Part shown: positions 44,570 through 61,947 of the stretch, in pieces | Numbering within the stretch: position 1 is the stretch's first letter | How the letters are laid out: the number at the start of each line of letters is the position of its first letter | Source: a virus | Length of the DNA stretch: 64,000 nt | Reading direction: 5' to 3' (one strand) | Virus record (IMG/VR): IMGVR_UViG_3300032722_000006 | Location: 32,001 to 96,000 of that record | Position numbers and translations under genes: made by a program | Notes under the pieces: model-generated | What the model saw: only the letters and a program-made list of their open reading frames with translations | The model's database searches: none | What the model was told of the DNA's origin: nothing

Positions 44570-44661
44570 TGGTGGACCGCCAGGGAGTCGAACCCTGCAG
44601 TTATGCCGTATCAGAGCGTCGCGGAGGTATAAAACCCGCCCGGGCAACCGACCCGCGGTCC
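44570..44661 (-). tRNA. Atypical tRNA, anticodon UAU (Ile codon AUA), long variable arm
   Basis: GGACCGC/GCGGTCC acceptor, CAGGG-TTCGACT-CCCTG T arm, loop TTTATAC, encoded CCA, non-canonical D arm. Confidence 0.7.
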
Positions 44662-44681
44662 AAGAATGGGAACCGCAGTCC

Positions 44682-45395: not shown

Positions 45396-45470
45396 TCAAA
45401 CTACTTCCTGAAGATGAAACTCCTCTCTTCAGGATAGCACTGTACCACATTACGTTGCAGGTGTTCATTG

Positions 45471-45542
45471 AGCGACCGACGGGGTTCGGACCCGTGACCT
45501 CCTGGATGGGAACCAGACGCGTTGCCACTACGCTACGGTCGC
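45471..45542 (-). tRNA. tRNA-Gly(CCC)
   Basis: Cloverleaf; TCTGG-TTCCCAT-CCAGG; U73. Confidence 0.9.
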
Positions 45543-45607
45543 AAAAACGATCTTCACCTTCTGCCTAGTTTGGATTTTGAGTGGGCCGATGGTCATCCCA
45601 CAAAGGG

Positions 45608-46021
45608 TTACTGATCGTTGGGAAAGACAAGATAATCAGAAGCATAATTCGTTGTGTTGAAATACTTTGTAGACTTCTCAAATCTAACACTCATTCCTCG
45701 AGTGTACTCTGTCAGTTTCTTCAACGTAACGTACAAAACCACGTTTCGATCGGTTACGTAAAGAGCCATCACATCAAACTCATCACCAATGTATGGTCGA
45801 GTGTGATCGTGTTGCTTACACGCTTCGAAAACAACAAGCTCATTCTTAGACGTTGAAGTCTTGACTTGAATTCTCGTGAATTTCGAGTTTTTGTATGCAA
45901 CGAGATCAATCTCGGATGAACCGGTGACCTCTTTAAAAACATCATATTCAAGACCGAGGAGCTGTTGTGTCACAGCTAGTTCACCAATCGTTCCTTTACG
46001 TGAAGTAGGTGAGGCACTCAT
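45608..46021 (-). CDS. PD-(D/E)XK homing-endonuclease-like protein
   Basis: KGTIGE, IDLVA...RIQVKT; AT-richer than flanks; ATG directly after tRNA-Gly CCA. Confidence 0.8.
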   Translation of the reverse strand: MSASPTSRKGTIGELAVTQQLLGLEYDVFKEVTGSSEIDLVAYKNSKFTRIQVKTSTSKNELVVFEACKQHDHTRPYIGDEFDVMALYVTDRNVVLYVTLKKLTEYTRGMSVRFEKSTKYFNTTNYASDYLVFPNDQ

Positions 46022-46022
46022 C

Positions 46023-46104
46023 TGGAGCGGGTGGTGGGATTCGAACCCACGATGCTTTCGCGCCTGCTTGGAAGGCAGGTGATCTACCACTGACCGACAC
46101 CCGC
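46023..46104 (-). tRNA. tRNA-Gly(TCC) with extended variable arm
   Basis: CCTGC-CTTCCAA-GCAGG; variable region CGCGAAAGCATC; U73; CCA. Confidence 0.9.
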
Positions 46105-46126
46105 GTGTCTTTTCATAATTACTCTA

Positions 46127-47005
46127 CTACGCTGCGATGTCTCCGTTCAACCCTATCGAGATTCGCAGGTACCTCGTCAATATGTCAGTCTGGTCCTCGA
46201 GCACCGCTCGTTGGTGTGAGAATGCGAAGTGTGACACCAGTGCATTGCCGACGAGGTACAAGGGCCGTTTTAGTGCTCTCGGAATGCCCTTGGTCAAATC
46301 ACTTTCATCCCTAGGACCGACTCTACCTCCAAACAGGGCAAAATTCTCTCCTGCCCATGCCATGACGCCGATGCGCTGGTGTTGAATCGGAAGTTCCGCG
46401 TTGACGAAGTACAGAGATTTTACGTTCCCGGCGTTGAGAATGTCGAGGAATTGTCTGTGAATGTATGCTGCGAACTCACCGTTTGTGCATGCGTACGGGC
46501 ACCTCGGGTCACCTGTGCAGTGTCCTAGCACATCACCGATGACGCCTTCATCCTGAAGGATCTTGGTGATATGCGGGATGTTGAAGACGTTCGTGACGCA
46601 TGCGAAGTTCGTGGGCGCTCGTTCGATGACAACCGGCATGAGGTTCTCGAAGAACTCGTCGTGTACGTAGCAGATGTCATCGTCCATCTTCACGTAGATC
46701 GTGTTCGGAGCGACGCACGCTGCGTAGAAAAGGTGGATCGAACTGCTGTACTGGAAGTGCTTTCGCCTGGCGTCGTAGAGTTCCTTCTTGAGGGGGCCCG
46801 GCGAGAAGATGCGCTTGACCTTCGGGAACGTCGCCTCGAGTCGTTCGAAGTACGCTAGGTCAGCGGGTTCGTCCGTGTTCACCCAGAGTTGAATCTCATC
46901 GATGATGCTAGCGAAGCGATCAGCAAGCAAGTACGGGAGAAGGATACGCATGTAGCGGTATCGTCCCGATGGGATACAGATGACGACTCTTTTGTCCTGA
47001 AACAT
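46127..47005 (-). CDS. GT-A-like glycosyltransferase
   Basis: CIPSGRYRYM, YVKMDDDICYV (DxD), HFAFSHQR. Confidence 0.7.
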   Translation of the reverse strand: MFQDKRVVICIPSGRYRYMRILLPYLLADRFASIIDEIQLWVNTDEPADLAYFERLEATFPKVKRIFSPGPLKKELYDARRKHFQYSSSIHLFYAACVAPNTIYVKMDDDICYVHDEFFENLMPVVIERAPTNFACVTNVFNIPHITKILQDEGVIGDVLGHCTGDPRCPYACTNGEFAAYIHRQFLDILNAGNVKSLYFVNAELPIQHQRIGVMAWAGENFALFGGRVGPRDESDLTKGIPRALKRPLYLVGNALVSHFAFSHQRAVLEDQTDILTRYLRISIGLNGDIAA

Positions 47006-47024
47006 GTCTAGACCTTGAACAATC

Positions 47025-47213
47025 CTATCTCATCGAGAGATGACCGCGTTCAGGCACCATGAACGTGATGACGTCGCCGCACGCCGGACATTCATGTTCA
47101 TAGACACCTGGTGTGAACACCATCATGCTTGGAGGATTGTGTTCTGGGTGTTTGCAAACAGGGCGGCGTTTGTAAGCGCTGGCAGCGTTGTCATCAATTC
47201 TTCGAGTAGGCAT
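47025..47213 (-). CDS. Small Zn-binding protein
   Basis: CKHPEHNPP...HECPACG. Confidence 0.55.
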   Translation of the reverse strand: MPTRRIDDNAASAYKRRPVCKHPEHNPPSMMVFTPGVYEHECPACGDVITFMVPERGHLSMR

Positions 47214-47223
47214 GTATTCTCCG

Positions 47224-47310
47224 AGGAAGGTGAGGGATTCGAACCCCCGGGACCCGTTAGGGTCCTTCCGCTTTCAAGGCGGACGCAATAGGCCTCTCTA
47301 CCAACCTTCC
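47224..47310 (-). tRNA. tRNA-Ser(TGA)
   Basis: TCCGC-CTTGAAA-GCGGA; long variable arm. Confidence 0.9.
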
Positions 47311-47742
47311 AAATGTCAGTTTCTTACTGCGGTACGTCGGTGTTTGTGAGTGACAATTGGGACACAATAGTTTCAAGTTGTTCAAGATGTGATTCGTTGA
47401 ACATCCATCAATGTGATCAAGCTCAAGTGAGATTGGTTCTCCATTCCATGTGTCAATTTGACACTTTTCGCATTTGTATTCTTTCAGACCTTCTTTGACT
47501 AGTCTCTTTGAGAGATGCGCTGTTGGGTATCCTGGGTATTTTCCTTCAAGAATCTCATTGAGAGGTGTTATTGCGCTTGATCGATTACGAATTTGTCGAT
47601 AAAGACCGCAATCTCTCGCAATTCGTTCGAACGTTCGTTGACACACGCCACTTTTCGCAGCAGCTTCACGAAGATTTCTACTTGTTTCAAACAGATGAGA
47701 AATTTCCTCTCGAGTAAGCGCTGCATTATTTCCCACGTTCAA
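47257..47742 (-). CDS. HNH homing endonuclease (C-terminus runs into tRNA-Ser)
   Basis: CEKC, LELDHIDG..TN..LNNLKLLCPNCHSQT. Confidence 0.9.
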   Translation of the reverse strand: MNVGNNAALTREEISHLFETSRNLREAAAKSGVCQRTFERIARDCGLYRQIRNRSSAITPLNEILEGKYPGYPTAHLSKRLVKEGLKEYKCEKCQIDTWNGEPISLELDHIDGCSTNHILNNLKLLCPNCHSQTPTYRSKKLTFGRLVERPIASALKAEGP

Positions 47743-47771
47743 TCATATACTATGATGCATGAGATTGCACC

Positions 47772-47990
47772 TCAGGGAATTCTGTCGGTTGACCACTGGA
47801 CAGTGATCGCAACGTTGCCGACAGCATCGGTGTGAGGACGTATCCCAACATGATCGTGATGACAGTGCAATTTTTCTCCTTTGCACGCATCGGGAGGCGT
47901 CCTGTAGACGCTCCCTGTGTCCCACCACATGTTTGCTGTCGCGCAAGATGTGCAAAGCATCATCATGACGATCAGGAACCATCTCTTCAT
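47772..47990 (-). CDS. Small predicted lipoprotein
   Basis: MKRWFLIVMMMLCTSC signal/lipobox-like sequence. Confidence 0.5.
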   Translation of the reverse strand: MKRWFLIVMMMLCTSCATANMWWDTGSVYRTPPDACKGEKLHCHHDHVGIRPHTDAVGNVAITVQWSTDRIP

Positions 47991-48002
47991 CCTGATACAT
48001 AT

Positions 48003-48191
48003 TCACCTCTTTTCCTCCTTGAGGGCATACAGTTCAGGGTGTTTGAGCGTGATGTGATTGACGTAGCAATTCACACAGATGATCGCCGGACACAGTTGGC
48101 AGACCCACGCTTCGCCACCGAAAGGATTGTCTCGGGAGGGTCGTTCATGCTGCTCAACCTGGCTTGAGCATGATGGACATTTCATGTACAT
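48003..48191 (-). CDS. Small zinc-finger protein
   Basis: CPSC, CQLC, CVNC..H....H. Confidence 0.55.
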   Translation of the reverse strand: MYMKCPSCSSQVEQHERPSRDNPFGGEAWVCQLCPAIICVNCYVNHITLKHPELYALKEEKR

Positions 48192-48193
48192 TG

Positions 48194-48277
48194 CGGAATC
48201 GGCAGGACTCGAACCTGCAAGACCTTGCGGCTCACGGGTTTAGCAAACCCGCTGTTTAACCATTCACACACGATTCC
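48194..48277 (-). tRNA. tRNA-Ser(GCT)
   Basis: CGGGT-TTGCTAA-ACCCG; long variable arm; G73. Confidence 0.9.
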
Positions 48278-48301
48278 ATGTCCCGTACGTGGGACCGACG
48301 T

Positions 48302-48499
48302 TCACCAGCAGCTGAACCCGTTTCCAGGGATACCATTGCAGTAGCAGATCACGCCTGTCGGCCCGGGCGGGATGACGCACCGACGCATTCCATTCGTGTC
48401 GCAGCAGTATGTCACGGGCTGAGCCTCAACTGGTGAAGATTGAACGCCGATGATTGCGAGTGACATGATGACGAGCAAGGTAGTGATGATCTTTTTCAT
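48302..48499 (-). CDS. Secreted six-cysteine peptide
   Basis: MKK + hydrophobic signal + VEA site; CC-x7-C-x10-CxC-x10-C. Confidence 0.65.
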   Translation of the reverse strand: MKKIITTLLVIMSLAIIGVQSSPVEAQPVTYCCDTNGMRRCVIPPGPTGVICYCNGIPGNGFSCW

Positions 48500-48533
48500 G
48501 ATCAGACATATTACTACGTCAGATGTCACTTGT

Positions 48534-48899
48534 TCAATCAGCCTTTAGACTACCCACGACCCTGTTGATCTCCTGGATAGAGCACGGTCCGAACGCTGCA
48601 CAGGTCGGCTCGTCCTCTTCATCGAGAAAAGGGTGCACCTCAACGTCAGCGAGCTGGGCGCGGAAGATTAGGTCCTCCAATGCTCCGAGCGATTCAACGC
48701 TCATGATGACGGGAGCGAAGGAACCTGACAACCACGTTGCCTCCGCGGGGGTCAACCTGATGTGGACCTCGTCCCCTCGTTCTGCCTCGTTATTGTCAAC
48801 AAGGAACATCATTGACGCATGCGCAATCTGAGCGGCCTGCTCGTTCTTGTGCATGTTCAGATCACGTCTTACCACGATGACTTGCTTCACGTCGTCCAT
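48534..48899 (-). CDS. Second PTH2-family protein (divergent active site)
   Basis: KQVIVVRRDLNM...AAQIAHA, PTCAAFGP. Confidence 0.8.
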   Translation of the reverse strand: MDDVKQVIVVRRDLNMHKNEQAAQIAHASMMFLVDNNEAERGDEVHIRLTPAEATWLSGSFAPVIMSVESLGALEDLIFRAQLADVEVHPFLDEEDEPTCAAFGPCSIQEINRVVGSLKAD

Positions 48900-48959
48900 G
48901 GTTTCCTCCGCTTTTCAAAGATCGTACTACGACACCGGCATCCGAGGATGTTGATGTTG

Positions 48960-49031
48960 TGATCCCAGTCGGGTTCGAACCGACGTCCTCCACCGTGTCA
49001 GGGTGGCGCGCTACCGCTGTGCCATGGGATC
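48960..49031 (-). tRNA. tRNA-Val(GAC)
   Basis: CCACC-CTGACAC-GGTGG. Confidence 0.9.
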
Positions 49032-49094
49032 GTAAAGGAGCATGCGAGTGCATGGTGCCTGCTCCTCTAAGTAGGAAGTTCGTCCGTCAGTGCG

Positions 49095-49433
49095 TCACTT
49101 TCCCGGACGTTTCTGCTGAGAACGCTCTCGGCGCTCCTTCGCGCGCATTCGCTTCTCGGGCTCAGCAGACGCGACGGGCGCGGTCGGTGCTCCTACAGCC
49201 TCGACCACCTTCTTCGCGTCCTCAATCTTCGCAAGGATGCGAGCTCGCTGCTTCGCAGCACCGACGCCCTTTCCCAATCGAGAATCGAGCGCATCCAGCT
49301 GTGCCTGAGGCGACAAGCCCGTCCAGTGCTTCAGACGCTCGGTGCCCTCTTCCTGCTGGATCTTCCTGTGGTCGGGTCGGGGTCCACCACCTGTGAACCT
49401 GCGATCAGTGTTCGTCCTCTTTGCTTGTCCCAT
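49095..49433 (-). CDS. Basic hypothetical protein
   Basis: AAGGA...GGTG RBS; Lys/Arg-rich. Confidence 0.65.
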   Translation of the reverse strand: MGQAKRTNTDRRFTGGGPRPDHRKIQQEEGTERLKHWTGLSPQAQLDALDSRLGKGVGAAKQRARILAKIEDAKKVVEAVGAPTAPVASAEPEKRMRAKERRERSQQKRPGK

Positions 49434-49488
49434 CGTCTTCACCTGGTCCTTTCGTTCCATCAGACACACGGTGACCATCACCGTGCAG

Positions 49489-49563
49489 CACCCTCGGCAG
49501 GATTCGAACCTGCGTTACTACAGCTTAGAAGGCTGCGGCCTAATCCGTTCGAGCCACGAGGGC
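49489..49563 (-). tRNA. tRNA-Arg(TCT)
   Basis: GCAGC-CTTCTAA-GCTGT. Confidence 0.9.
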
Positions 49564-49567
49564 ATTG

Positions 49568-49641
49568 TCTTCACGGCAGGATTCGAACCCGCGACCTCTC
49601 GCTTCGGAGGCGAGTGTTCTGTTCCGCTGAACTACATGAAG
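49568..49641 (-). tRNA. tRNA-Arg(CCG)
   Basis: CTCGC-CTCCGAA-GCGAG; C1:G72. Confidence 0.9.
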
Positions 49642-49645
49642 ATTG

Positions 49646-49720
49646 TCTCCTCGGAGGGATTCGAACCCCCGACACCCGGTTTAGGAAACCGGAGTTCTAT
49701 CCTGGCTGAACTACGAGGAG
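49646..49720 (-). tRNA. tRNA-Arg(CCT)
   Basis: CCGGT-TTCCTAA-ACCGG; C1:G72. Confidence 0.9.
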
Positions 49721-49813
49721 ATGAGAAAGCACTTTCACCTGCCGCCGATCCCTACGTGAGACAGCTCACGATCCGTGAACGGGACAAATTATGCTGCGGT
49801 TACTCATGCTATG

Positions 49814-49896
49814 TGCCAACGGAGGGAGTTGCACCCTCACGCTCTTTCGAACGGCGGATTCTGAGTCCGCTGTGACTGCTGTTCCACCACGTTGGC
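49814..49896 (-). tRNA. tRNA-Leu(CAG)
   Basis: GCGGA-CTCAGAA-TCCGC; T loop TGCAACT. Confidence 0.9.
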
Positions 49897-49897
49897 A

Positions 49898-50314
49898 TTA
49901 CGTGACCTTCTTGACCCTGCTGACCCACCACCTTCGAGCGAACCTTGAGACGAGATACGCTTCCGCGAGCCGCTTCGATCGCCACACCCTCTGTGCAAGA
50001 GCGCTGGGTGAGTACGATGACGTGACAGTGTATCCTTTCCTGAGACCGTATGCGATCGCTTCAGAATACAAGGCGAGTCCCAATCCTTTTCCTCTGTGCC
50101 CCTGATCGAGGTTTGAGTGCGTCTCGTACACCCTGACGGGATGACCCGCACAGTTTGCTGATGCTTCGACTACATTGACACTTCCGATCTCCTTGCCGTT
50201 GAACTTTAGCTTCACGGTGTAGTCAGTGAAGTTTTCCTTAGGAGTGACGCTGATTGCGTATCCGGCCGGCAGCTGCATGAGACCAACATACCACGTCGGT
50301 CTACGGATTTGCAC
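49898..50314 (-). CDS. GNAT-family acetyltransferase
   Basis: Acetyl-CoA motif HRGKGLGLALY; S..AQRVW. Confidence 0.75.
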   Translation of the reverse strand: MQIRRPTWYVGLMQLPAGYAISVTPKENFTDYTVKLKFNGKEIGSVNVVEASANCAGHPVRVYETHSNLDQGHRGKGLGLALYSEAIAYGLRKGYTVTSSYSPSALAQRVWRSKRLAEAYLVSRFARRWWVSRVKKVT

Positions 50315-50786
50315 TCTCTTCTTCGCTCCGACATTCCTCCCTAATTTCCATTAGAAGTCGCCCGAGCCAGTTCTGACCTACACCTTTGTAAACGCCCCAG
50401 AACTTGTCACCCCACGTGTTACCCTCGACCAACGGGATATCTTCTGTCGCAAGTAACATTGACCTAAGAAGGGGGTTCTTGAATTTTTCCTGCAGCAGAT
50501 TCCGCATCACTGTCACCTTCTGTAGGTCCCAGTCAGTGGGTAGCTTGACAGAGTAACCGAGCTTTTTTGCAATGCCCGGTGACGCTGCTTCGCGGATCAT
50601 CTTCTTCGTCACCGGGTCGGATGACTTCGCCGCCTGGTACGCATGCTCCACTGTTGGGTAACGATCACCGTCGACCCAAATTGATGCTGCGTAGAAATTG
50701 CTCAAGAACCCAAACTCACCTCTGAAGTGATCGATTTCTACGGGTTTCTCTGACGGAAGCTGCGGTTGGCGTGTTTCGTCGCTCAT
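50301..50786 (-). CDS. NADAR (YbiA-like) protein
   Basis: FLSNFY, YPTVEHAYQAAK, AKKLG, KFKNP.L...L.AT, EGNTWGDKFWG, GQNWLG.LLM. Confidence 0.92.
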   Translation of the reverse strand: MSDETRQPQLPSEKPVEIDHFRGEFGFLSNFYAASIWVDGDRYPTVEHAYQAAKSSDPVTKKMIREAASPGIAKKLGYSVKLPTDWDLQKVTVMRNLLQEKFKNPLLRSMLLATEDIPLVEGNTWGDKFWGVYKGVGQNWLGRLLMEIREECRSEEESANP

Positions 50787-51322
50787 CTGCTTCTTGTGAC
50801 CTCTTCGCAAACGCTGACGTCATCTTCTTCATCGAGTTCCGTCGCCATGAGCGCCTGGATCCTCGAACCGTCGCCCCAATGGATCTTGGCAACGTTGTCA
50901 GTCGCGTTGTGACAGTGACCGTGTGTGTAAGCAGTCAGAAGGTTGCTGTTCTTCATGCCTGCCTTCTGGCAGGCGGCAATGCTTTCGTCGAGATGGTGCA
51001 ATGCGACGGCGGCTTGCTTCGAGACGTCAGGTGAACACAAAGCTGCTTTTTCTTGATCGTTGAACGGGTGGACCTGGAATGCGCCGAGTGCCTCGCCATG
51101 ATCGCCTCTGACCTTGCATGAAACTACATCATCACGCCACCCACCGGTTTCCCATCGAGCGATCTTGATCAAGGTCTCGACCTTCTGAGGATCTGTCGTC
51201 GTTTGCACGATCGCATCGACGACATTTGTCATCGTGTGAAAATCGTAAGGACCCCAGTTAGAATTCCACGTGCTGTCTGTCAGGTTCATTGCGAAGATGA
51301 GGGCTGCCGTGGCTAGATTCAT
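50783..51322 (-). CDS. Exported lysozyme/transglycosylase-like protein
   Basis: Hydrophobic N-terminus, ARWETGG catalytic-Glu-like motif, GAFQV, LTAY. Confidence 0.55.
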   Translation of the reverse strand: MNLATAALIFAMNLTDSTWNSNWGPYDFHTMTNVVDAIVQTTTDPQKVETLIKIARWETGGWRDDVVSCKVRGDHGEALGAFQVHPFNDQEKAALCSPDVSKQAAVALHHLDESIAACQKAGMKNSNLLTAYTHGHCHNATDNVAKIHWGDGSRIQALMATELDEEDDVSVCEEVTRSR

Positions 51323-51427
51323 TCTTGTGTAGACTCCATGATGCCGGCGAGATAGGTGCCGACACCCCGTCATTATACTTCACCTGTAAAAAATGTTTCA
51401 CTGCCATGTGTTCATGATGAATAATTG

Positions 51428-51501
51428 TCTCCTCGGTGGGATTCGAACCCACGACCTCCGGCTTCGCAGACCGGTGCTCTAATCCGCTGAGCTACGGGGA
51501 G
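51428..51501 (-). tRNA. tRNA-Arg(GCG)
   Basis: CCGGT-CTGCGAA-GCCGG; C1:G72. Confidence 0.9.
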
Positions 51502-51970
51502 ATGATGTTATGAGCCTCCACGGGATATTCGCCTTGACGACGCGGTCTAGCATGTCTGCTGTTCCGCGACTGTCCTGGACGTTATTGTGAAATGCTACGC
51601 AAACATCGATGGGCTCTTCTGCCTTGTGTTCTTTGTCAAGCATCTGCTGGTTTCTGATGGGACCCGCAGCGTTCTTGAACTGAATCCAATCAGCAGGATA
51701 CGCTCTGACCTCAAAGTCCAACGCTTCTGCAACTGCAGCACAGATGATGTCCGCACCCTTGCATGCACCGTGAACTAGGATTGTGCCGGGCCTGTAGCCC
51801 TTCAGAACCTCAACGACTGAGGTGATGTCTGACCACTCCCTGTCACCGGTGACGAGAATTTTCTTGATGATCGTCTCGGAAGGTATGGTTCGACGCTCCT
51901 CATCGTCACGACGCTCGTGATAACGACGTTCGACTTTCTCACGACGAATTTTGCCTGTTCTTTGTTTCAT
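51479..51970 (-). CDS. SLOG-superfamily (DUF2493/YspA-like) protein
   Basis: ILVTGDREW, VHGACKGAD, YPADW....AAGPIRNQQML, SRGTADM. Confidence 0.85.
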   Translation of the reverse strand: MKQRTGKIRREKVERRYHERRDDEERRTIPSETIIKKILVTGDREWSDITSVVEVLKGYRPGTILVHGACKGADIICAAVAEALDFEVRAYPADWIQFKNAAGPIRNQQMLDKEHKAEEPIDVCVAFHNNVQDSRGTADMLDRVVKANIPWRLITSSPRSSAD

Positions 51971-52047
51971 GGTCTCCCTGGAGGGATTCGAACCCCCGAC
52001 CTTCACGTTCGTAGCGTGCTGCTCTGTCCGGGCTGAGCTACAAGGAG
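51970..52047 (-). tRNA. tRNA-Arg(ACG)
   Basis: GCACG-CTACGAA-CGTGA; C1:G72; CCA. Confidence 0.9.
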
Positions 52048-52054
52048 ATGATTT

Positions 52055-52279
52055 TCAACGAATGTCGAGTTCAGAAAGTTTGACACAACTAACGTCGCCG
52101 TCGGAGTGGTACCACCCGTCTTCTGACCATTCAACGATGACGTATTCTGGGCCTTTCTTCGAAAGGGCGATGATCGTGCAACCACCGACCTGTTTAGGTC
52201 CACAGCACAAATCACGTAGGAATGCATGTTGACCGATGAGCGTCTTTTTCTTGCCTAACATGTGACGATCGTACATCAT
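52055..52279 (-). CDS. Small hypothetical protein
   Basis: Fills the gap between RNA genes. Confidence 0.5.
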   Translation of the reverse strand: MMYDRHMLGKKKTLIGQHAFLRDLCCGPKQVGGCTIIALSKKGPEYVIVEWSEDGWYHSDGDVSCVKLSELDIR

Positions 52280-52303
52280 CAGACAGATGAATTACACTCT
52301 TGC

Positions 52304-52332
52304 GTCCTGGTGATGGGATTCGGACCCACTAC
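52304..52332 (-). pseudogene. Orphan tRNA 3' fragment (T arm plus acceptor strand)
   Basis: GTGGG-TCCGAAT-CCCAT-CACCAGG-A next to the HNH gene start. Confidence 0.45.
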
Positions 52333-52365
52333 CATTTACGTGACACGTGTTGTATATTCGTATAC

Positions 52366-52926
52366 ATGAACACTTGCCTAGAATGTCACACAGATACGTA
52401 TAACGCTATGTTTTGTTCACGAAAATGTGCGGTTACGTTCAATAATCGTGGTGTTCAACACAACAAGGTCAAACCAAGAAATTGCGCAAAGTGCGGTGAC
52501 GTTTATTTCAACGTTTGCGGTCGACGTTCTCGCCTCTGCGTGAAATGCAGAGAAGAATTTGATAACAGAAGCGATGAGATTGACAATCGAACGTTGCGTT
52601 TCTATTGGGATAAGACAGGGCAAATAAGCTCTCCTGCAACGTTTCACGAGGTACGACATCACGCCAACAGGCGAAACAAACACCGTCTTCAAGCATGTCA
52701 ACGATGTGGTTATTCAAAACACATCGAGTATGCACACATCAAACCCATAATCAGCTTTGATCTTGATACACCGATCAAGATCGTCAACGCTGAATCGAAC
52801 ATTCTGCTCTTGTGTCCAAATTGTCATTGGGAATTTGATAATGGACATCTAAAACTTGTGCCGGGAATGGGACTCGAACCCACGCATGTCACTGCTTATG
52901 AAACAGCCGCTCTGCCTCTGAGCTAA
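52366..52926 (+). CDS. HNH homing endonuclease, antisense to the array (overlaps tRNA-CAT)
   Basis: FCSRKCA, CQRCG, AHIKPI....N...NILLLCPNCHWEFD; AT-rich. Confidence 0.88.
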   Translation: MNTCLECHTDTYNAMFCSRKCAVTFNNRGVQHNKVKPRNCAKCGDVYFNVCGRRSRLCVKCREEFDNRSDEIDNRTLRFYWDKTGQISSPATFHEVRHHANRRNKHRLQACQRCGYSKHIEYAHIKPIISFDLDTPIKIVNAESNILLLCPNCHWEFDNGHLKLVPGMGLEPTHVTAYETAALPLS

Positions 52927-52932
52927 CCCGGC
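52859..52932 (-). tRNA. tRNA(CAT), elongator Met or Ile2
   Basis: GCTGT-TTCATAA-GCAGT. Confidence 0.85.
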
Positions 52933-53039
52933 ATGATGGGACGTAACCACCACGCCCCCACCACATTCTCGCTTTCACCTTCAACGTTGGTGTACGTTTT
53001 CCGCATATTCAATTTGCGAATCAGACGGTTACTCGCTCG

Positions 53040-53122
53040 TACACCCAGAGGGACTCGAACCCCCACGCCCTTTCGGGCACTGCAGCCTAAGTGCAGCACG
53101 TCTACCATTCCGCCATGAGTGC
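53040..53122 (-). tRNA. tRNA-Leu(TAG)
   Basis: CTGCA-CTTAGGC-TGCAG; long variable arm. Confidence 0.9.
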
Positions 53123-53217
53123 ATGCAGGGGATTCTATGAACCCCTGTCAATGACGCGATCATCCGTTGTCATTAACTAGCGACGATCATTGTCGATGAT
53201 GACGATCGTCGTTATTG

Positions 53218-53290
53218 TGCCCCCGGAAGGAATTGCACCTTCGACATCCGGTTTCGAAGACCGGCGTTCTTTCTGCTGAACTACGGGGGC
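53218..53290 (-). tRNA. tRNA-Arg(TCG)
   Basis: CCGGT-CTTCGAA-ACCGG; T loop TGCAATT. Confidence 0.9.
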
Positions 53291-53292
53291 GT

Positions 53293-53639
53293 GGGTGGTA
53301 CGTAAGCGGGATTTTGTCTAGGATGATCATTCCTCTGTGATGTGTGTCACCACACATCTATAGCAACAACCCGCATGCTCGGGCGAACAGCCCTCAAACG
53401 CACACTGTTTGTCTTGCTCCGGGAGGGACCCCTTACCGTCTGCATTGCTGCATTCGTGGTGGGCTCTTACTCCACCGTTTCACCATCACCTGATCCTCTT
53501 TTGTGAGGCCATCGGCTGTCTTTTCTCTGTTGAGTCTTCCGTCACCTTGCGATGCCCAGTCGTTAGCTGGTTCCCTGTTCTATGGAGTCCCGACTTTCCT
53601 CTGCGCGTATAGTACGCAGCGATCATCTTTCTCCACCCC
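53293..53639 (-). ncRNA. rnpB: RNase P RNA, bacterial type A
   Basis: CR-I GAGGAAAGTCGGGAC pairing with CR-V ACAAAATCCCGCTTA; AACAGAGAA, GGTGAAACGGTGGAGTAAGAGCCCACC, GGAGCAAG; P1 GGGTGG/CCACCC. Confidence 0.93.
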
Positions 53640-53641
53640 TG

Positions 53642-53724
53642 TGCCATCGGAGGGAATTGCACCCTCACACCCTCGCGGGCGCCGGAGTTTGAAACCGGTG
53701 TGTCTGCTGTTTCACCACGATGGC
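53642..53724 (-). tRNA. tRNA-Leu(CAA)
   Basis: CCGGT-TTCAAAC-TCCGG; T loop TGCAATT. Confidence 0.88.
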
Positions 53725-53725
53725 A

Positions 53726-53838
53726 TTACTTTTTCGTTTAGATTCTGAAATTTGTTTTCGAGTTTCAATTGTATGTTTTCTTCCTCGAAATCTGTGTGTT
53801 CCGGTGATAGAGTGACAATTAGGACACAAATATTCGAG
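53726..53838 (-). pseudogene. C-terminal remnant of an HNH-NUMOD3 endonuclease
   Basis: Reads LEYLCPNCHSITGTHRFRGRKHTIETRKQISESKRK with no start of its own. Confidence 0.75.
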
Positions 53839-54325
53839 GCTTGCCCGATCCCACCCATGCGTTGATTTTCACTTTTTCCCATTGTTCTGGTGGACTACCG
53901 TTCTTGCCTAGCTGCAGGATGTTCATTGTCCTGTGCCAACCTTCGTACAATTCGTACCCGTCCACCCTCTTGATCACGATGATCGGTTCGTTCTTTCCTG
54001 TTGAGACCGCGAGTTCCTTGTGCCTTGCCATTCGTTCTTCGTCATTGTGAACTTCGTATGGATTTATCGCACCAAATTGTCTCTCGAGGATGCGCCTGCG
54101 TGTGTCTGGAGCGAAGTCACTCAAGTTGACTATGATGACCTGTTGATGCCAATTGAGGCGATCGAATGCCTTGTACAGGGGATGTTCACCCATCCCAGTC
54201 CTATAGAAATCGTGTAGTACGTATTCAGGGATGTTTGGGTACTTCCTGCGAAGTTCCTTGTAGAGACCTTTCCATCTCATCTCAATGATCAGGCTGATCG
54301 CCTCACGAAGCAACGTCAACGACAT
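53819..54325 (-). CDS. ParB/Srx-like domain protein with N-terminal LLREAI..IIE helix
   Basis: EPIIVIKRVDGYELYEGWHR; ATAGTTA motif upstream. Confidence 0.65.
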   Translation of the reverse strand: MSLTLLREAISLIIEMRWKGLYKELRRKYPNIPEYVLHDFYRTGMGEHPLYKAFDRLNWHQQVIIVNLSDFAPDTRRRILERQFGAINPYEVHNDEERMARHKELAVSTGKNEPIIVIKRVDGYELYEGWHRTMNILQLGKNGSPPEQWEKVKINAWVGSGKPRIFVS

Positions 54326-54341
54326 GTCAGTAACTATTCTG

Positions 54342-54425
54342 TGTCATCGAGGGGACTCGAACCCCTACGGCCTTTCGGCCACAAGCACCTCAAGCTTGCG
54401 CGGCTACCAATTACGCCACGATGAC
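54342..54425 (-). tRNA. tRNA-Leu(GAG)
   Basis: CAAGC-TTGAGGT-GCTTG. Confidence 0.9.
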
Positions 54426-54505
54426 ATTGGAGGAGGGAATCTGGTCGCCTCCCTCCGAGGGCGTTTTATGCTGATCGTCAGCAATTTCTTGCCTCCCAGG
54501 CCAGG

Positions 54506-54588
54506 TGCTATCGAGGGGAGTTGCACCCCTACGCCCTTTTGGGCACAACGTTCTCACCGTTGCGTGACTGCTGTTCCACCACGATAGC
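54506..54588 (-). tRNA. tRNA-Leu(GAG), second variant copy
   Basis: CAACG-GTGAGAA-CGTTG; T loop TGCAACT. Confidence 0.85.
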
Positions 54589-54600
54589 GTGTGATGTCTG

Positions 54601-54675
54601 TGACCCCAACGGGATTCGAACCCGTGTTCCCTGCTTGAAAGGCAGGTCGCCTAGGCCTCTAGCATTGATGGGGCC
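54601..54675 (-). tRNA. tRNA-Glu(TTC)
   Basis: CCTGC-CTTTCAA-GCAGG. Confidence 0.88.
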
Positions 54676-54802
54676 ATTTTCCACCTGCTACTGCTCAGCT
54701 TTTTTCGGCCTGCCGTAGCTTTCCGGGTGATGGAAACCGTTGATTTGGTGACAATGCGAAGTTCGTTTTCCGTTCAAATTCGGTGTCCTTTCGCATTGTC
54801 GG

Positions 54803-54877
54803 GGTGACTGACGGGATTCGAACCCGCGAATATCCGATTCACAGTCGGACGCCTTAGGCCTCTTGGCTACAGCCACC
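54803..54877 (-). tRNA. tRNA-His(GTG)
   Basis: TCCGA-CTGTGAA-TCGGA; G-1:C73. Confidence 0.92.
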
Positions 54878-55025
54878 ATGAAACACTACTTCTTCTTGTT
54901 CTTCTTTTCGAACTGATCCTTGTAGACGTACATTGCAACGACAACGATGACGACGGCTGCAGCAATCTTGAGTTTGTTGTTCATATAGAGAACATACCAC
55001 ACCGGCTGGTGTTAGTACACTCAGG

Positions 55026-55097
55026 AGCTGACGAAGGGATTCGAACCCTCACACGGGACTTTACAGGAGTCCAACCCGACCGTTGGGCGACATCAGC
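55026..55097 (-). tRNA. tRNA-Thr(TGT)
   Basis: GGACT-CCTGTAA-AGTCC; C33. Confidence 0.8.
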
Positions 55098-55111
55098 ACG
55101 TACCTTTCACT

Positions 55112-55176
55112 TTCGCTCAGGACTTGAACCTGATCTTAGGCTTGGACAGCCCCGTGCAACCGTTACACTAGCCTCA
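55112..55176 (-). pseudogene. tRNA-like element lacking an acceptor stem
   Basis: D arm GTGT-AACGGTT-GCAC and T arm TCAGG-TTCAAGT-CCTGA intact; only 2 acceptor pairs. Confidence 0.6.
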
Positions 55177-55191
55177 AGAGTTACTCAGTCG

Positions 55192-55270
55192 TGGTCCCAG
55201 AGGGATTCGAACCCTCACGCATTCGCAGCGATTTTTAAGATCGCCGTGTCTACCGTTCCACCATGAGACC
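55192..55270 (-). tRNA. tRNA-Leu(TAA)
   Basis: GCGAT-CTTAAAA-ATCGC. Confidence 0.9.
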
Positions 55271-55288
55271 AGGTTCATCTCTTTCACC

Positions 55289-55375
55289 TGCATTCGATGG
55301 GACTCGAACCCATAAGCCTCGTCAGAGGCGCCAGCCTTTTTGTCGGCCCGCGTATGCCATTTCCGCCACGAATAT
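55289..55375 (-). tRNA. Leu-type tRNA body with degenerate anticodon loop (GACAAAAA)
   Basis: Leu-like D arm, long variable arm, A73; no U33. Confidence 0.65.
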
Positions 55376-55394
55376 TGATGGTTACTTGAAACGG

Positions 55395-55467
55395 AGCGGA
55401 TGACGGGATTCGAACCCGTGTGTCCAGAGTGGCGCTCTGGTGCCTGAAACCTCTCGGCCACACCCGC
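55395..55467 (-). tRNA. tRNA-Gly(GCC)
   Basis: CCAGA-GCGCCAC-TCTGG; G32, C33; U73. Confidence 0.85.
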
Positions 55468-55468
55468 A

Positions 55469-55544
55469 TGGAGCTGACGATGGGACTCGAACCCATGTGT
55501 TCCTCTTTACCGAAGAGGGGCGCCTGCCTCTGCGCTACGTCAGC
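55469..55544 (-). tRNA. tRNA-Thr(GGT)
   Basis: CCTCT-TCGGTAA-AGAGG; C33; CCA. Confidence 0.88.
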
Positions 55545-55548
55545 GTTG

Positions 55549-55670
55549 AGTCGAGAGAGGGAGTCGGACCCACATGCCCTTCAGATGCCTACGACATCGT
55601 CCGGGCGGCCCGTGTTGGAACACGTGCTGTGCCTGCCGGTTACACCACTGAGGATCGTGCCTCAGGCCAT
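55549..55670 (-). ncRNA. Enlarged tRNA-like RNA
   Basis: D-like arm, extended central stem, nested long arm, T-like arm, and a 3' end TCTCGACT identical to that of tRNA-Cys. Confidence 0.5.
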
Positions 55671-55674
55671 GCGT

Positions 55675-56418
55675 TTACTGGGTCGGAGTCGAGAGTCGGA
55701 CTTGAACCGACATACAGCTGTTTTGCAGACAGCTCGCTGAATCATTCGCGTACCTCGACGTAAATTGTGCAATTCTTTCTTGAAGTTGATCAATCGTGAT
55801 CAATGATTTTGCATTCTTTCGTTGATTCTCTGTGTGACGAACTAGACGACAATTAGCAGGATGTGCTATCAACGTTGGATCGATCCCGAATTTGAAACCA
55901 TCAGCGATCGAAATCAGGTGATCACGTGACACTCCGTTCAAATTTCCTCCTCTGTTAGAGGCTGAATACCACCCGTATTGTTTAAGCAGATCAAGATCGA
56001 AATGCTCTGGGTAGTCATACACGTTGAACGTAAAGAGGCACAAGTACTTGTAACTCTCGCGTGAACTCCGTTGTTCGGCATGAAATCCCTTGTAGCACTC
56101 TACGTTACAAAATCGATGCTTTTGACGTCCTCGACGGCCGTACACACGATTGGGTTTCCCACACAAGTCACACTTGAAATCATGTCCGGTAAGCGATCTA
56201 CCAACGCCCATACCCTTCCTAGGAGAAGGTCGACCCTTCATTGTTTGTCGCGTTTTTTCCCTTGATTCTGCGCTTTGATGACGATGATGTGATGCGCAAC
56301 TCTGTGTGCAGTGTTTGCGTCTCTTTGGAGATTTGAACTGCTTCTCAGTGAGAAGCAGTTCAAACGAACTACCGCATGGACAGATGAACGCGTATGACTT
56401 ACGTGATACCTGATACAC
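55675..56418 (-). CDS. HNH homing endonuclease with NUMOD3-like and Zn motifs (reads through tRNA-Cys)
   Basis: HQSAESREK, CDLCG, SRDHLIS...HPANCRL..H.EN..K. Confidence 0.85.
   Translation of the reverse strand: MYQVSRKSYAFICPCGSSFELLLTEKQFKSPKRRKHCTQSCASHHRHQSAESREKTRQTMKGRPSPRKGMGVGRSLTGHDFKCDLCGKPNRVYGRRGRQKHRFCNVECYKGFHAEQRSSRESYKYLCLFTFNVYDYPEHFDLDLLKQYGWYSASNRGGNLNGVSRDHLISIADGFKFGIDPTLIAHPANCRLVRHTENQRKNAKSLITIDQLQERIAQFTSRYANDSASCLQNSCMSVQVRLSTPTQ
55687..55759 (-). tRNA. tRNA-Cys(GCA)
   Basis: GCTGT-CTGCAAA-ACAGC; U73. Confidence 0.88.
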
Positions 56419-56448
56419 GTCAAATTGTAATCTGATGTACCAGATTGT

Positions 56449-56958
56449 TCAAGAAAGCGCTTCCCATTCTTGATTGATGTCATCCCATCGCATGATGCGA
56501 TTGAGAAGCGTTATGTTTAGTCCATCAGTACGTTTGTCGTTTGGATCTGCGTACAATGTTGGGGGGTTGTCATCTTCATCAACACGAAATTGCATTGTGT
56601 TCAGAAGCTCTTTGGGAGACATTCGTTGGGGTTGACCACCCAAGCTTCTTAGCATGACGATCCATCTCCTCGCAGCGTTTGGGAACATCATCAGTACCTG
56701 TTCGGGAGTTAGGATTCCTCCGTATGCCGGTGCAGTCGAAACGTTCGGTCCAGCGCTTCTTCCTCGAGGAGCCGGTTCCTTGTATGCATCCATGAACGCC
56801 TCACTGAGGCCTTCGACGTTGATGTCTCCCACACGAGCAGGATCGTCAAGATCTCGATCGTCTGCATCATCACGGCTGTTCGCACCACGTGGCAATCTTG
56901 CATGATCCGCGACCGCCTCACGGATTAGGCGCCTGAGCTGCTTCAAGGAAATCTTCAT
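56449..56958 (-). CDS. Putative packaged internal protein
   Basis: MKISLKQLRRLIREAV N-terminus; ATACTTA motif upstream. Confidence 0.7.
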   Translation of the reverse strand: MKISLKQLRRLIREAVADHARLPRGANSRDDADDRDLDDPARVGDINVEGLSEAFMDAYKEPAPRGRSAGPNVSTAPAYGGILTPEQVLMMFPNAARRWIVMLRSLGGQPQRMSPKELLNTMQFRVDEDDNPPTLYADPNDKRTDGLNITLLNRIMRWDDINQEWEALS

Positions 56959-56975
56959 GTCCTAAGTATTCGTTG

Positions 56976-57047
56976 TCCACACAGTTGGAGTTGAACCAAC
57001 ACCTCCGGGGCTTCACTCCGGCGCGCGACCACCTACGCAATGTGTGG
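56976..57047 (-). tRNA. tRNA-Phe(GAA), variant
   Basis: CCGGA-GTGAAGC-CCCGG; C1:G72; G32. Confidence 0.78.
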
Positions 57048-57051
57048 ATAG

Positions 57052-57124
57052 CGGTGAAGGTCGGAATTGAACCGACGCGACCCTGCTCTTCAGGCAGGTG
57101 CTCTACCAACTGAGCTACTTCACC
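57052..57124 (-). tRNA. tRNA-Phe(GAA)
   Basis: CCTGC-CTGAAGA-GCAGG. Confidence 0.92.
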
Positions 57125-57131
57125 ATGTTTC

Positions 57132-57207
57132 TGGAGCTAGCAGTGGGAGTCGAACCCACGTGTTCCTCTTTACGGGAGAGGGGCGCCTGCCTCTGCGCTA
57201 TGCTAGC
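57132..57207 (-). tRNA. tRNA-Thr(CGT)
   Basis: CCTCT-CCCGTAA-AGAGG; C33; CCA. Confidence 0.88.
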
Positions 57208-57215
57208 ATACGTTG

Positions 57216-57288
57216 TCAGGGTCGTGGGACTCGAACCCACATTCTCTCGCGTCCGAGGCGAGCGGGGCTCCATATCCCCTTCACCCTG
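57216..57288 (-). tRNA. tRNA-Pro(CGG)
   Basis: CTCGC-CTCGGAC-GCGAG; A37. Confidence 0.82.
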
Positions 57289-57289
57289 A

Positions 57290-57367
57290 TGGTCGGAATG
57301 GCGGGAGTTGAACCCACGATCTCTCGTCCCCCAGACGAGCGCGATAACCAGGCTTCGCTACATTCCG
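57290..57367 (-). tRNA. tRNA-Pro(GGG)
   Basis: CTCGT-CTGGGGG-ACGAG; CCA. Confidence 0.9.
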
Positions 57368-58152
57368 ATGATTGCTTTCGGGAATCTCTTCTTGGCGTAT
57401 TCGAGCCACTCGTACCTCACCTGAACAAGTACGTTACGAATTTCGACTGCATCACAGCCTTTCTTGACCGCCGCCGTAGCGAGTTCATCAAGATGTTCAT
57501 CGATGACCTTGATGAAGGGTCTCCGCGTACGCTTGGCGAGGTGATAAAATCCTGCGACGAACGCTTCTTTTTCTGCGTCAGAGAGCATGTACCTTGCGAA
57601 AGTCCTAGGACTGTTCCATACGCTGTCTGGGATTGACATCAAGTCCTGGCTAGCTTGAATTCCTCCGAGCAATTTTTCGTCCGACTGGACAGAGTGTTCA
57701 AACTCGTGCCTGATGACCTCGTACGATTGTTGCTGGATCATCGAGAGGTGTTGAGGCTTCATGATTCCTGTCGTTGAATCGACAAAAATCTTGATGGAGA
57801 GCAGGTCCTTGATGGGAGACCATCCTCCTGATATTCCGACCTTGTCGACCGGAGCAGGCTTGTTGAGCAAGTAGATCATTAGTTGCACCGTCATCGCAGG
57901 AGGTGCGTTCGGATCGGTTCCCAAGGCCCGTGATCTTTCACGACGACCTTCGGGTGTTCCGAACCAGTCCTGCCTCTTCATGAATGCCGGCCACGACTGC
58001 AGGTACTTCATGTTGATGCCGCCTTGCTTGTTGACCTTGTCCATCACCTTCTTGCATGCACGGATCAATTTCTGCGTCACCATCCTCGTGAACGAGTCGA
58101 TCTTTGATTCTGCAAGAAGCTCAATGACGACCTGTTCGTACAACGTATGCAT
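57358..58152 (-). CDS. Zincin-motif (HExxH) protein
   Basis: VIRHEFEHSVQ...Y.....EKEAF; ATAGTTA motif upstream; N-terminal ..IELLAE. Confidence 0.7.
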   Translation of the reverse strand: MHTLYEQVVIELLAESKIDSFTRMVTQKLIRACKKVMDKVNKQGGINMKYLQSWPAFMKRQDWFGTPEGRRERSRALGTDPNAPPAMTVQLMIYLLNKPAPVDKVGISGGWSPIKDLLSIKIFVDSTTGIMKPQHLSMIQQQSYEVIRHEFEHSVQSDEKLLGGIQASQDLMSIPDSVWNSPRTFARYMLSDAEKEAFVAGFYHLAKRTRRPFIKVIDEHLDELATAAVKKGCDAVEIRNVLVQVRYEWLEYAKKRFPKAIIGM

Positions 58153-58173
58153 GAATGTAACTATTCTCATCTG

Positions 58174-58246
58174 TCGGGGTGGTGGGACTCGAACCCACGG
58201 CAGCCTGCTTGTAAGGCAGGTGATCTAGCCGCTGATCTACACCCCG
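58174..58246 (-). tRNA. tRNA-Val(TAC)
   Basis: CCTGC-CTTACAA-GCAGG; C1:G72. Confidence 0.9.
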
Positions 58247-58252
58247 ATTGTG

Positions 58253-58323
58253 TCAACGCGCCGGGATTCGAACCCGGGTTTCCTGCTTGTGATGCAGGCG
58301 CTCTGCCGTTGAGCTACGCATTG
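58253..58323 (-). tRNA. tRNA-Val(CAC)
   Basis: CCTGC-ATCACAA-GCAGG; C1:G72. Confidence 0.9.
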
Positions 58324-58375
58324 AAAGGAACGCAAGTTGTCAATGAACGGGAACGTCATACTGGCGTTCCATCCG

Positions 58376-58449
58376 TCAGCGAGGGGAGATTCGAACTCCC
58401 GAAAACCTGTATCCAAAACAGGTGCCCTAGGCCTCTAGGCGACTCGCTG
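58376..58449 (-). tRNA. tRNA-Pro(TGG)
   Basis: CCTGT-TTTGGAT-ACAGG; A37. Confidence 0.88.
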
Positions 58450-58646
58450 GTCTACTTCTGTCTTCCGTCGGGAGTCTCTTCCCGGCTAGCCACTTTCAAC
58501 CCTTTAAGGGGCGTGGCAATCGAAACGGCAGTACGCCTGAGGTATGGGACGTAAGGCAACAGACGCTTCCGCGCCGTTCGCTCTCACTCGTCCTACCTGT
58601 TAGCATACTCGACATCATTTGAATGACTCGTTTCGTAATCTATCTA

Positions 58647-58724
58647 TGGTGATCCCAAGGGGATTCGAACCCCTATTTCTGCGATGAGAACGCAGCTGCC
58701 TAAGCCGTTAGCAATGATGGGACC
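58647..58724 (-). tRNA. tRNA-Glu(CTC)
   Basis: CTGCG-TTCTCAT-CGCAG; CCA. Confidence 0.88.
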
Positions 58725-61678: not shown

Positions 61679-61947
61679 GTGTCCTTCTTCTTTGCAATGT
61701 TCGAACGTGGTTGACCAAGCTTGAGGTTGCCACTTTTCTGTCGTTGGAGGCGATTGACCTTGAACTTCTCGCCCTTGTAGACGATCGTCTGGTTGCCCAC
61801 GTCATCGTTCATGACAGTCCGTGTCACGCTCTCCTCAATCAGATCACCCGTCTTCAGCTCGACAACGTCAAACGTCACCTTCCAATGGTTCTCAGCGCGA
61901 GCGGTGCTCTCACCTGCCGGGCACATCTTGGGAGAGTAACCCATCAA
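61675..61947 (-). CDS. Hypothetical protein
   Basis: Coupled to both neighbours. Confidence 0.6.
   Translation of the reverse strand: MMGYSPKMCPAGESTARAENHWKVTFDVVELKTGDLIEESVTRTVMNDDVGNQTIVYKGEKFKVNRLQRQKSGNLKLGQPRSNIAKKKDT

Follow-up and report, generated by a model that had tools for sequence, protein, structure and literature searches.

A class A RNase P RNA gene between tRNA genes in the genome of a huge freshwater phage

The RNA subunit of RNase P counts among the hallmarks of cells and of organelles. In bacteria, the class A form of this ribozyme (Rfam family RF00010, which includes E. coli M1 RNA, the product of rnpB, and the RNA of Thermotoga maritima) is recognized by helices P1 to P18 with the pseudoknots P4 and P6, the conserved regions CR-I to CR-V, the GGU of loop L15 and a specificity domain (S-domain). 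The tRNA cluster of phage T4 encodes two small stable RNAs of unknown function, species 1 and species 2, which are co-transcribed with the tRNAs and freed by the tRNA-processing machinery; they are non-tRNA products of a phage tRNA operon, but not RNase P RNAs. In yeast mitochondria the RNase P RNA RPM1 is co-transcribed with a tRNA on each side, in the order tRNAfMet-RPM1-tRNAPro, and cleavages by RNase Z and RNase P at those tRNAs help to free it (PMC3866640). Here we describe an RNase P RNA gene in a stretch of 64,000 nucleotides (nt) of viral DNA, positions 32,001 to 96,000 of IMG/VR virus record IMGVR_UViG_3300032722_000006 (the whole stretch is called the window below). The record is linear, metagenomic, 145,283 bp long and ~39% complete according to CheckV, by whose estimate the full genome is about 370 kb; its carrier is a huge uncultured freshwater phage.

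The gene lies inside a tRNA array, and its RNA shares with the bacterial class A RNAs all the features listed above, differing from them in being encoded by a virus, in having no cognate rnpA that we could find, in its short P1 and P3, in its sequence (at most 66% identity to any sampled RNA), and in its position between tRNA genes with spacers of 2-3 nt rather than as a separate gene. RPM1 is the closest precedent for release by tRNA processing. However, RPM1 belongs to an organelle, is drastically reduced and rich in A+U, and has a nuclear-encoded protein of its own, longer spacers and a second promoter, whereas the window RNA is a complete molecule of the bacterial type and has hardly any spacer. 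On the strength of conserved structure, placement and comparison with phage relatives, we consider it likely that the gene specifies a genuine and selectively maintained class A RNase P RNA, an active ribozyme that would be released by tRNA end-processing and would work with the RnpA protein of the host on the phage's own pre-tRNAs; expression, the processing route, the use of host RnpA and catalysis on phage pre-tRNAs are the parts of this reading that we infer, whereas the identity and fold of the RNA, its compensatory conservation among phages, the arrangement of the genes, the phage setting and the lack of rnpA are shown by the data below.

A search of the window with the Rfam covariance models (cmscan) matched RF00010 at 53287-53640 on the minus strand, over the full length of the model (1-367 of 367) and with 224.4 bits (E 1.5e-71; the gathering threshold is 100 bits), and this is the sole RF00010 match across the whole record. 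An earlier note, made from the letters of the window, had proposed an RNase P RNA with type A conserved regions at 53293-53639; the feature is the same one, its strand is minus, CR-I to CR-V are all present, and its covariance-model score is not a poor one. The final 4 nt of the Rfam envelope run into the neighboring tRNA-Arg gene, and the mature RNA is predicted to have its 5' end at 53640/53641 and its 3' end at 53291. Cellular rnpB genes score 163-347 bits in 31 genomes sampled from the Pseudomonadota (the phylum of locus L074, a Usitatibacter metagenome-assembled genome) and 198-316 bits in 31 genomes sampled from the class of an acIV actinobacterial genome, and the score of the window RNA falls inside this range. 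The RNA reads as a complete, canonical class A molecule and not as a reduced form. The molecule itself is unremarkable within RF00010, and what is new is its encoder and its embedding.

When the structure line of the model is mapped onto the sequence, 86 of 101 model pairs are canonical, and helices P1, P2, P3, P5, P7-P14, P15, P16, P17 and P18 are found. P2 (7/7 pairs) and P18 (8/8) are perfect, and P16 (6/6 canonical pairs) and P17 (4/5) make up an arm that, like P6, is a class A trait missing from class B. The pseudoknots P4 and P6 provide independent checks, because the covariance model cannot represent them and leaves them unscored. In P4, the strands AAGUCGGGA and UCCCGCUU form 8 pairs around the usual bulged U. 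Two of these pairs depart from the consensus by compensated changes, a C-G that is flipped to G-C and a G-C that has become A-U; the compensatory P4 variant claimed earlier is thus real, and its strands pair perfectly. In P6, GAACA and UGUUC form 5 Watson-Crick pairs, and here too compensated changes set two pairs apart from the Rfam consensus, GGgcA/ugCuc. The conserved single-stranded elements are likewise found: GAGGAAAG, J5/15 GAGCAAG, J11/12 ACAGAGAAAAGAC, GGUGAAA, GUAAGAG and L15 GGU; GGUGAAACGGUGGAGUAAGAGCC covers J12/13 and P13, and GGGU stands ahead of the 3' strand of P15. From what is known of E. coli M1 RNA, we take the L15 GGU to be the element to which the substrate's 3' CCA pairs in class A RNAs. 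The single change in a strongly conserved stretch is in J18/2, where ACAGAA has become ACAAAA. We considered this as an oddity and rejected it: ACAAAA is present in 5 of 27 readable Pseudomonadota rnpB genes and in 7 of 89 readable bacterial rnpB genes with the P4 flip, and the G-to-A change is a natural polymorphism.

The order of the genes on the minus strand, 5' to 3', is tRNA-Leu, ribozyme, tRNA-Arg, with 3 nt (C53641, A53640, G53639) between the discriminator of tRNA-Leu and the first P1 pair and 2 nt (A53292, C53291) between the last P1 pair and G+1 of tRNA-Arg, which are the spacers of 2-3 nt from tRNA-Leu(CAA) and tRNA-Arg(TCG) that the earlier note had described. The 5' end of the ribozyme coincides with the 3' processing site of tRNA-Leu, and its 3' end with the RNase P cleavage site of tRNA-Arg, between C53291 and G53290. 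A promoter/terminator scan of the minus strand found no promoter- or terminator-like site between the three genes; the one promoter-like match there (53350-53323) is internal to the RNA, and the site count is no higher than in shuffles. Because the genes abut and no such site lies between them, the ribozyme is presumably made within the tRNA precursor. The record holds 52 tRNA genes in total, for all 20 amino acids, with a second block outside the window.

Relatives of the RNA are found in tRNA arrays of other phages. An exact scan of IMG/VR for GAGGAAAGTCNGGNCTC gave 64 loci, of which 43 hold an RNase P-like RNA (nhmmer) and 28 of these 43 also carry three or more tRNAs on the same strand; at 19 IMG/VR loci other than that of the window, the RNase P-like RNA lies within 15 nt of a same-strand tRNA. 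All 18 loci that were scanned with Rfam passed RF00010 (155-328 bits). Many of the loci are on contigs of 100-500 kb, and the nearest relatives lie in tRNA arrays of 100-360-kb contigs. These phage-array RNAs (L030/L058, L035, L059, L039, L044, L006/L043, L050 and others) belong to the same family, often abut a tRNA and share the P4 flip with the window RNA; their flanking tRNAs differ, and several are miniaturized, in contrast to the full-length window RNA. In a tree of 166 sequences (IQ-TREE), the window RNA groups most closely with L030/L058 (ultrafast bootstrap/SH-aLRT 100/85), inside a phage-only clade of seven that also takes in L035, L059, L039 and L044 (98/92), so that the phylogeny against bacterial rnpB that had been suggested as a check puts it among phage RNAs. 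Identity between the window RNA and its phage-array relatives is 59-66%. The carrier phages are themselves only distant relations of the window phage: its 1455-aa structural protein has no match in five of them, and a counterpart of its Rnl1-like ligase turns up in two, at 33% identity. No close kin of the window phage with the same RNA gene was found, the phages of the nearest RNA relatives sharing only distant proteins with it.

The fold has been kept across this divergence. We aligned eight phage-array RNAs with MAFFT and scored them against the Rfam-derived structure of the window RNA supplemented with P4 and P6: 90.8% of cells are standard pairs, compared with 74.5% after shuffling (0 of 500 shuffles reach the observed value), and only 31-45% of cells are paired when partners are slid by 1-3 columns. 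Both sides have changed in 58 of 99 pairs, and P4 is 100% paired. The structure came from one of the aligned sequences, which gives some bias in its favor, but a bias of this kind falls well short of explaining the effect size and the covariation of the pseudoknots. In every RNase P RNA locus where both P4 strands could be read, the two variable P4 pairs covary, GUCGGG occurring with CCCGCUU and GUCCGG with CCGGCUU, and GGA with UCC or GGG with CCC. Since fold pairing and P4 covariation both exceed what the bias could give, the gene does not look like a decaying passenger.

The earlier note had inferred that the RNA is excised by processing of the flanking tRNAs and matures the phage's own tRNAs; we find this the best reading, and hypothesize that the ribozyme is made and used as follows. 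tRNA-Leu(CAA), the P RNA and tRNA-Arg(TCG) would be transcribed together as a polycistronic precursor, in which 3' processing of tRNA-Leu would yield the 5' end of the ribozyme, and RNase P cleavage in trans at +1 of tRNA-Arg would yield its 3' end, the host enzyme acting first and the phage-built one later. Cleavage in cis looks sterically unlikely across a linker of 2 nt from P1 to the cleavage site, because P1 is far from the active site in the known architecture. The freed RNA of ~350 nt would fold into complete catalytic and specificity domains, bind host RnpA and cleave the 5' leaders of the phage's 52 pre-tRNAs, supplementing or replacing host RNase P capacity during infection. The phage would probably gain in capacity or in independence, in that it would flood the cell with pre-tRNAs of 52 kinds and bring the catalytic subunit too.

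The choice of the host protein as partner follows from the lack of a phage rnpA. A profile search with PF00825 found no RnpA in the window, where the earlier note had seen none either, or in the whole 145-kb record, and found none in five large tRNA-array virus records bearing RNase P RNA, three of them 94-100% complete (279, 463 and 497 kb); the same profile detects RnpA in 10 of 14 control genomes. With no rnpA found, the phage RNA would therefore use host RnpA, act alone or have an unrecognized partner. It is well established that P RNAs and P proteins of distant bacterial species reconstitute active holoenzymes, as reported by Guerrier-Takada et al. (1983) and Wegscheid et al. (2006). A hidden protein cofactor was also sought among the small open reading frames (ORFs) of the array, searched against Pfam at E up to 1, and the candidate was rejected, as the basic 128-aa ORF at 49095-49481 (pI 10.6) has no RnpA match and looks low-complexity.

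Several observations weigh against an active, host-assisted ribozyme. Of the 11 model pairs of P1, only 6 are Watson-Crick and one is G-U, and the P3 hairpin is short. The branch of the window RNA is long (0.75-0.81 changes per site), with at most 66% identity to any sampled sequence, and activity could conceivably have been lost in the window lineage alone. In a search of sequencing runs, the stretch was found in DNA runs only; the two RNA runs returned, from soil and moss, matched ~4% of the words sampled from it and say nothing about expression. Finally, the ~60% of the genome absent from the record could contain an rnpA or the gene of some other cofactor, and a very divergent RnpA could escape PF00825.

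The presumed substrates can be described from the 31 window tRNAs delimited by Rfam. A C follows 30 of the 31 in the encoded trailer, and CCA follows only 5; many trailers read CA, and tightly packed neighbors are 4 nt apart, with spacers such as CAAT. U stands at position -1 in 23/31. The unusual C1-G72 end pair occurs in 12/31, namely in three Pro, four Arg, two Val, one Phe and one Glu tRNA and in one at 54603-54673 that Rfam delimits and ARAGORN leaves uncalled. The claim that the phage's tRNAs are atypical thus has some basis. The tRNA-His gene encodes G-1 opposite C73, the bacterial arrangement, which needs RNase P cleavage one position upstream. A CCA-adding enzyme (PF01743) has no match in the 145-kb record. 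ARAGORN also called a 'tRNA-Stop' of 92 nt with anticodon UUA at 44570-44661 (minus), and two 'tRNA-???' with irregular anticodon loops at 4031-4106 (plus) and 55289-55375 (minus).

In huge phages with near-complete tRNA sets, a catalytic subunit of the phage's own might commandeer host RnpA and be tuned to C1-G72, mostly CCA-less, 4-nt-spaced substrates, and so act as a host take-over factor, an idea that we hold to be speculative and rather unlikely; if it were true, the phage's tRNA supply would be independent of host rnpB transcription, and host tRNA maturation would possibly be starved. A different balance is conceivable, in which the phage RNA mainly captures limiting host RnpA, starving or redirecting host RNase P: with no rnpA in the record or in the five large relatives, it would have to compete with host P RNA for the host protein, and the protein-contacting regions of known holoenzymes (P2-P3, J18/2, J2/4) are well kept. 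However, a pure decoy needs neither an active site nor a substrate-reading domain, and P4, P6, J5/15, L15 GGU and the whole S-domain have been kept here and are maintained by compensatory change across phages; competition and catalysis are moreover compatible with each other, and we regard a role mainly as a trap for RnpA as improbable.

The RNA might also be an active RNase P whose main targets are not ordinary tRNAs, such as odd tRNA-like RNAs, phage mRNAs or other non-coding RNAs. The unusual tRNA-shaped genes just described would be candidates, and cellular RNase P is known to cleave non-tRNA substrates, among them transfer-messenger RNA (tmRNA), 4.5S RNA and some phage RNAs (review PMC11143913). 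We find this quite improbable, as the 52 flanking tRNAs are the simplest substrates and the RNA shows no departure from a standard tRNA-reading class A enzyme.

Much the same low standing, or slightly less, falls to the idea of a neutral passenger, a captured cellular rnpB that is carried or decaying without a function. The long branch, the weakened P1 and P3 and an Rfam score below that of most Pseudomonadota rnpB genes are what such a gene might display, but at 66% identity or less a decaying copy would hardly keep its model pairs and both pseudoknots to the extent seen here. Its nearest relatives, moreover, are phage RNAs that differ from it by double compensatory changes, and they sit in phages so distant that the Rnl1 ligases have diverged and the structural protein finds no match, which implies long retention under selection; a passenger is accordingly hard to credit.

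The surroundings of the gene are those of a phage. The window encodes NAMPT and glycosyltransferases, a protein that weakly matches a baseplate wedge (E 1.6e-6) and, in a row, very large ORFs that match no PHROG; in or beside the array are three RNA-ligase-like genes (PF09511, E 3.6e-12; PF09414, E 1.5e-14; phrog_548, E 3.5e-12), Pth2, NADAR, a PD-(D/E)XK nuclease and members of PHROG families, and outside the window are a phage helicase (phrog_2488, 370 bits) and a DNA ligase (phrog_114). G+C is even along the window (0.47-0.56). The stretch is present in at least 15 lake-water metagenome runs and one biocathode run, and Logan contigs of other runs bridge the ribozyme and its neighbors with zero differences, at 53227-55282 (run X6) and 49656-54210 (run X5, which, unlike X6, is flagged as a possible source of this DNA). 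The chimera that the earlier note had named as a risk is therefore not what the data show, the tRNA/RNase P junctions being reproduced in independent assemblies with phage genes on both sides. Among 120 sampled bacterial rnpB loci none lies beside a tRNA array, the maximum being 3 tRNAs in 8 kb. An artefact, whether a phage/bacterial chimera or a misclassified bacterial or plasmid fragment, might be suspected in a linear, incomplete, metagenomic record when several other motif matches in IMG/VR and in GenBank 'phage' records are bacterial DNA, but with tRNAs of the phage array 0-3 nt away on both sides, in addition to the junctions, base composition, gene content and bacterial loci just given, it is exceedingly improbable.

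In full-text literature searches and targeted look-ups of papers, we met with no description of an RNase P RNA encoded by a virus. One survey of huge phages annotated RNA genes only with tRNAscan-SE and ARAGORN and leaves RNase P unmentioned (PMC7162821), and the megaphage RNAs reported in another study are tRNAs and a tmRNA only (PMC8172020). Among 50,697 GenBank phage records searched with blastn, RNase P-like matches occur only in bacterial contexts wherever the context was read, as in an Acinetobacter contig beside a prophage integrase and a Salmonella whole-genome-shotgun contig; five short unannotated faecal 'Bacteriophage sp.' records, whose context was not read, also matched. In the record of 'Microcystis phage MaAM05' (L256, MW495066.1 111323-119473) an unannotated RNase P RNA-like stretch has fabI, engB, mtgA and glyS as neighbors, and this 'complete phage genome' record, or that part of it, looks bacterial rather than phage.

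If an active ribozyme working with host RnpA is the right reading, the phage translation toolkit of tRNAs, tmRNA, synthetases and ribosomal proteins would extend to tRNA maturation by means of an evidently selected ribozyme gene, and the window phage would offer a natural case of a P RNA obliged to work with a foreign protein subunit. For structure-function work, the phage-array RNAs also supply class A sequences that have diverged strongly and yet look functional, and the window ribozyme is directly testable with standard assays. The coordinates of the ribozyme gene, its elements and its neighbors are collected in Table 1.

Table 1. Positions in the window of the RNase P RNA gene, its structural elements and nearby features.
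Feature	Position	Strand	Basis or pairing partner
RNase P RNA gene, class A, ~350 nt	53291-53640	minus	RF00010 match, P1-P18 mapped
P4 5' strand AAGUCGGGA, with bulged U; catalytic core, CR-I	53588-53596	minus	pairs with 53304-53311
P4 3' strand UCCCGCUU; CR-V, J18/2 ACAAAA just before	53304-53311	minus	pairs with P4 5' strand
P6 pseudoknot 5' strand GAACA, J5/7	53576-53580	minus	pairs with L17 loop
P6 pseudoknot 3' strand UGUUC, P17 loop	53385-53389	minus	pairs with J5/7
Complete specificity domain P7-P14, including J11/12 ACAGAGAAAAGAC and P13/P14 arms	53421-53575	minus	cmscan alignment, structure map
L15 GGU	53369-53371	minus	cmscan alignment, structure map
tRNA-Leu(CAA), directly 5' of ribozyme; no encoded CCA; trailer CA, then P1	53642-53724	minus	ARAGORN, Rfam
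tRNA-Arg(TCG), directly 3' of ribozyme	53218-53290	minus	ARAGORN, Rfam
tRNA array, 34 genes, ribozyme gene inside	44570-58724	minus	ARAGORN
Rnl1-type RNA ligase, array edge	42195-43463	minus	PF09511, E 3.6e-12
RNA-ligase-like gene	44682-45395	minus	RNA-ligase family match
RNA-ligase-like gene	61944-62816	minus	RNA-ligase family match

The P4 flip is found well beyond phages. When 185,579 species genomes were scanned for the flipped motif, at least 120 matches were obtained, mostly in Acidimicrobiia including freshwater acIV, with some Bdellovibrionota, Burkholderiales, Clostridium and others among the matches listed. The variant is thus neither a special adaptation nor a phage peculiarity, as it is widespread in cellular rnpB genes and in related phage RNAs, and the tree suggests that it is recurrent and arose more than once. 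Being recurrent in the tree, the flip is no host marker. Inferring the host from the flip, which might have implied the Acidimicrobiia, was considered and rejected: in the tree the phage clade is not nested among Acidimicrobiia, the best Acidimicrobiia sequence among the nhmmer matches listed scores 82 bits compared with 114 bits for the best phage relative, and the window RNA is no closer in identity to acIV rnpB (62%) than it is to phage RNAs. The next neighbors of the phage clade are Pseudomonadota-like, a placement that is weakly supported in a tree with long branches and with limited cellular sampling partly biased toward the flip. Seven genomes flagged as unpublished were among those covered by a BLAST search across a phylum, and none of our claims depends on them. 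The expectation that a phylogeny with bacterial rnpB would hint at the host was therefore disappointed; the tree gave no usable hint, and we make no claim about the host.

Among the relatives, reduction of the RNA takes different forms. P12-P14 are lost in L006/L043 and L050, in contrast to the window RNA with its retained S-domain; these RNAs of ~290 nt score 155-167 bits, keep the catalytic domain, and look intermediate between full-length and mini forms. At four further IMG/VR tRNA-array loci (L020, L054, L010/L036 and L004) the P4 strands are just 137-188 nt apart, which implies strongly miniaturized RNase P-like RNAs; the nhmmer profile missed these or matched them in part. Two arrays with an RNase P RNA also hold tmRNA genes (RF00023, 97-103 bits), at 4074-4409 of L035 and 7997-8332 of L059.

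In the window itself, genes for a Pth2 peptidyl-tRNA hydrolase and a NADAR-domain protein are interleaved in the array (48534-48899 and 50301-50810, minus strand), and the array neighborhood as a whole suggests tRNA repair and translation maintenance. Just upstream of tRNA-Leu(CAA), run X7 holds a strain variant of the ORF at 53819-54325 (minus) that differs at many sites, and these differences are often spaced by multiples of three (for example, 54002-54086), as expected for a coding gene under purifying selection.

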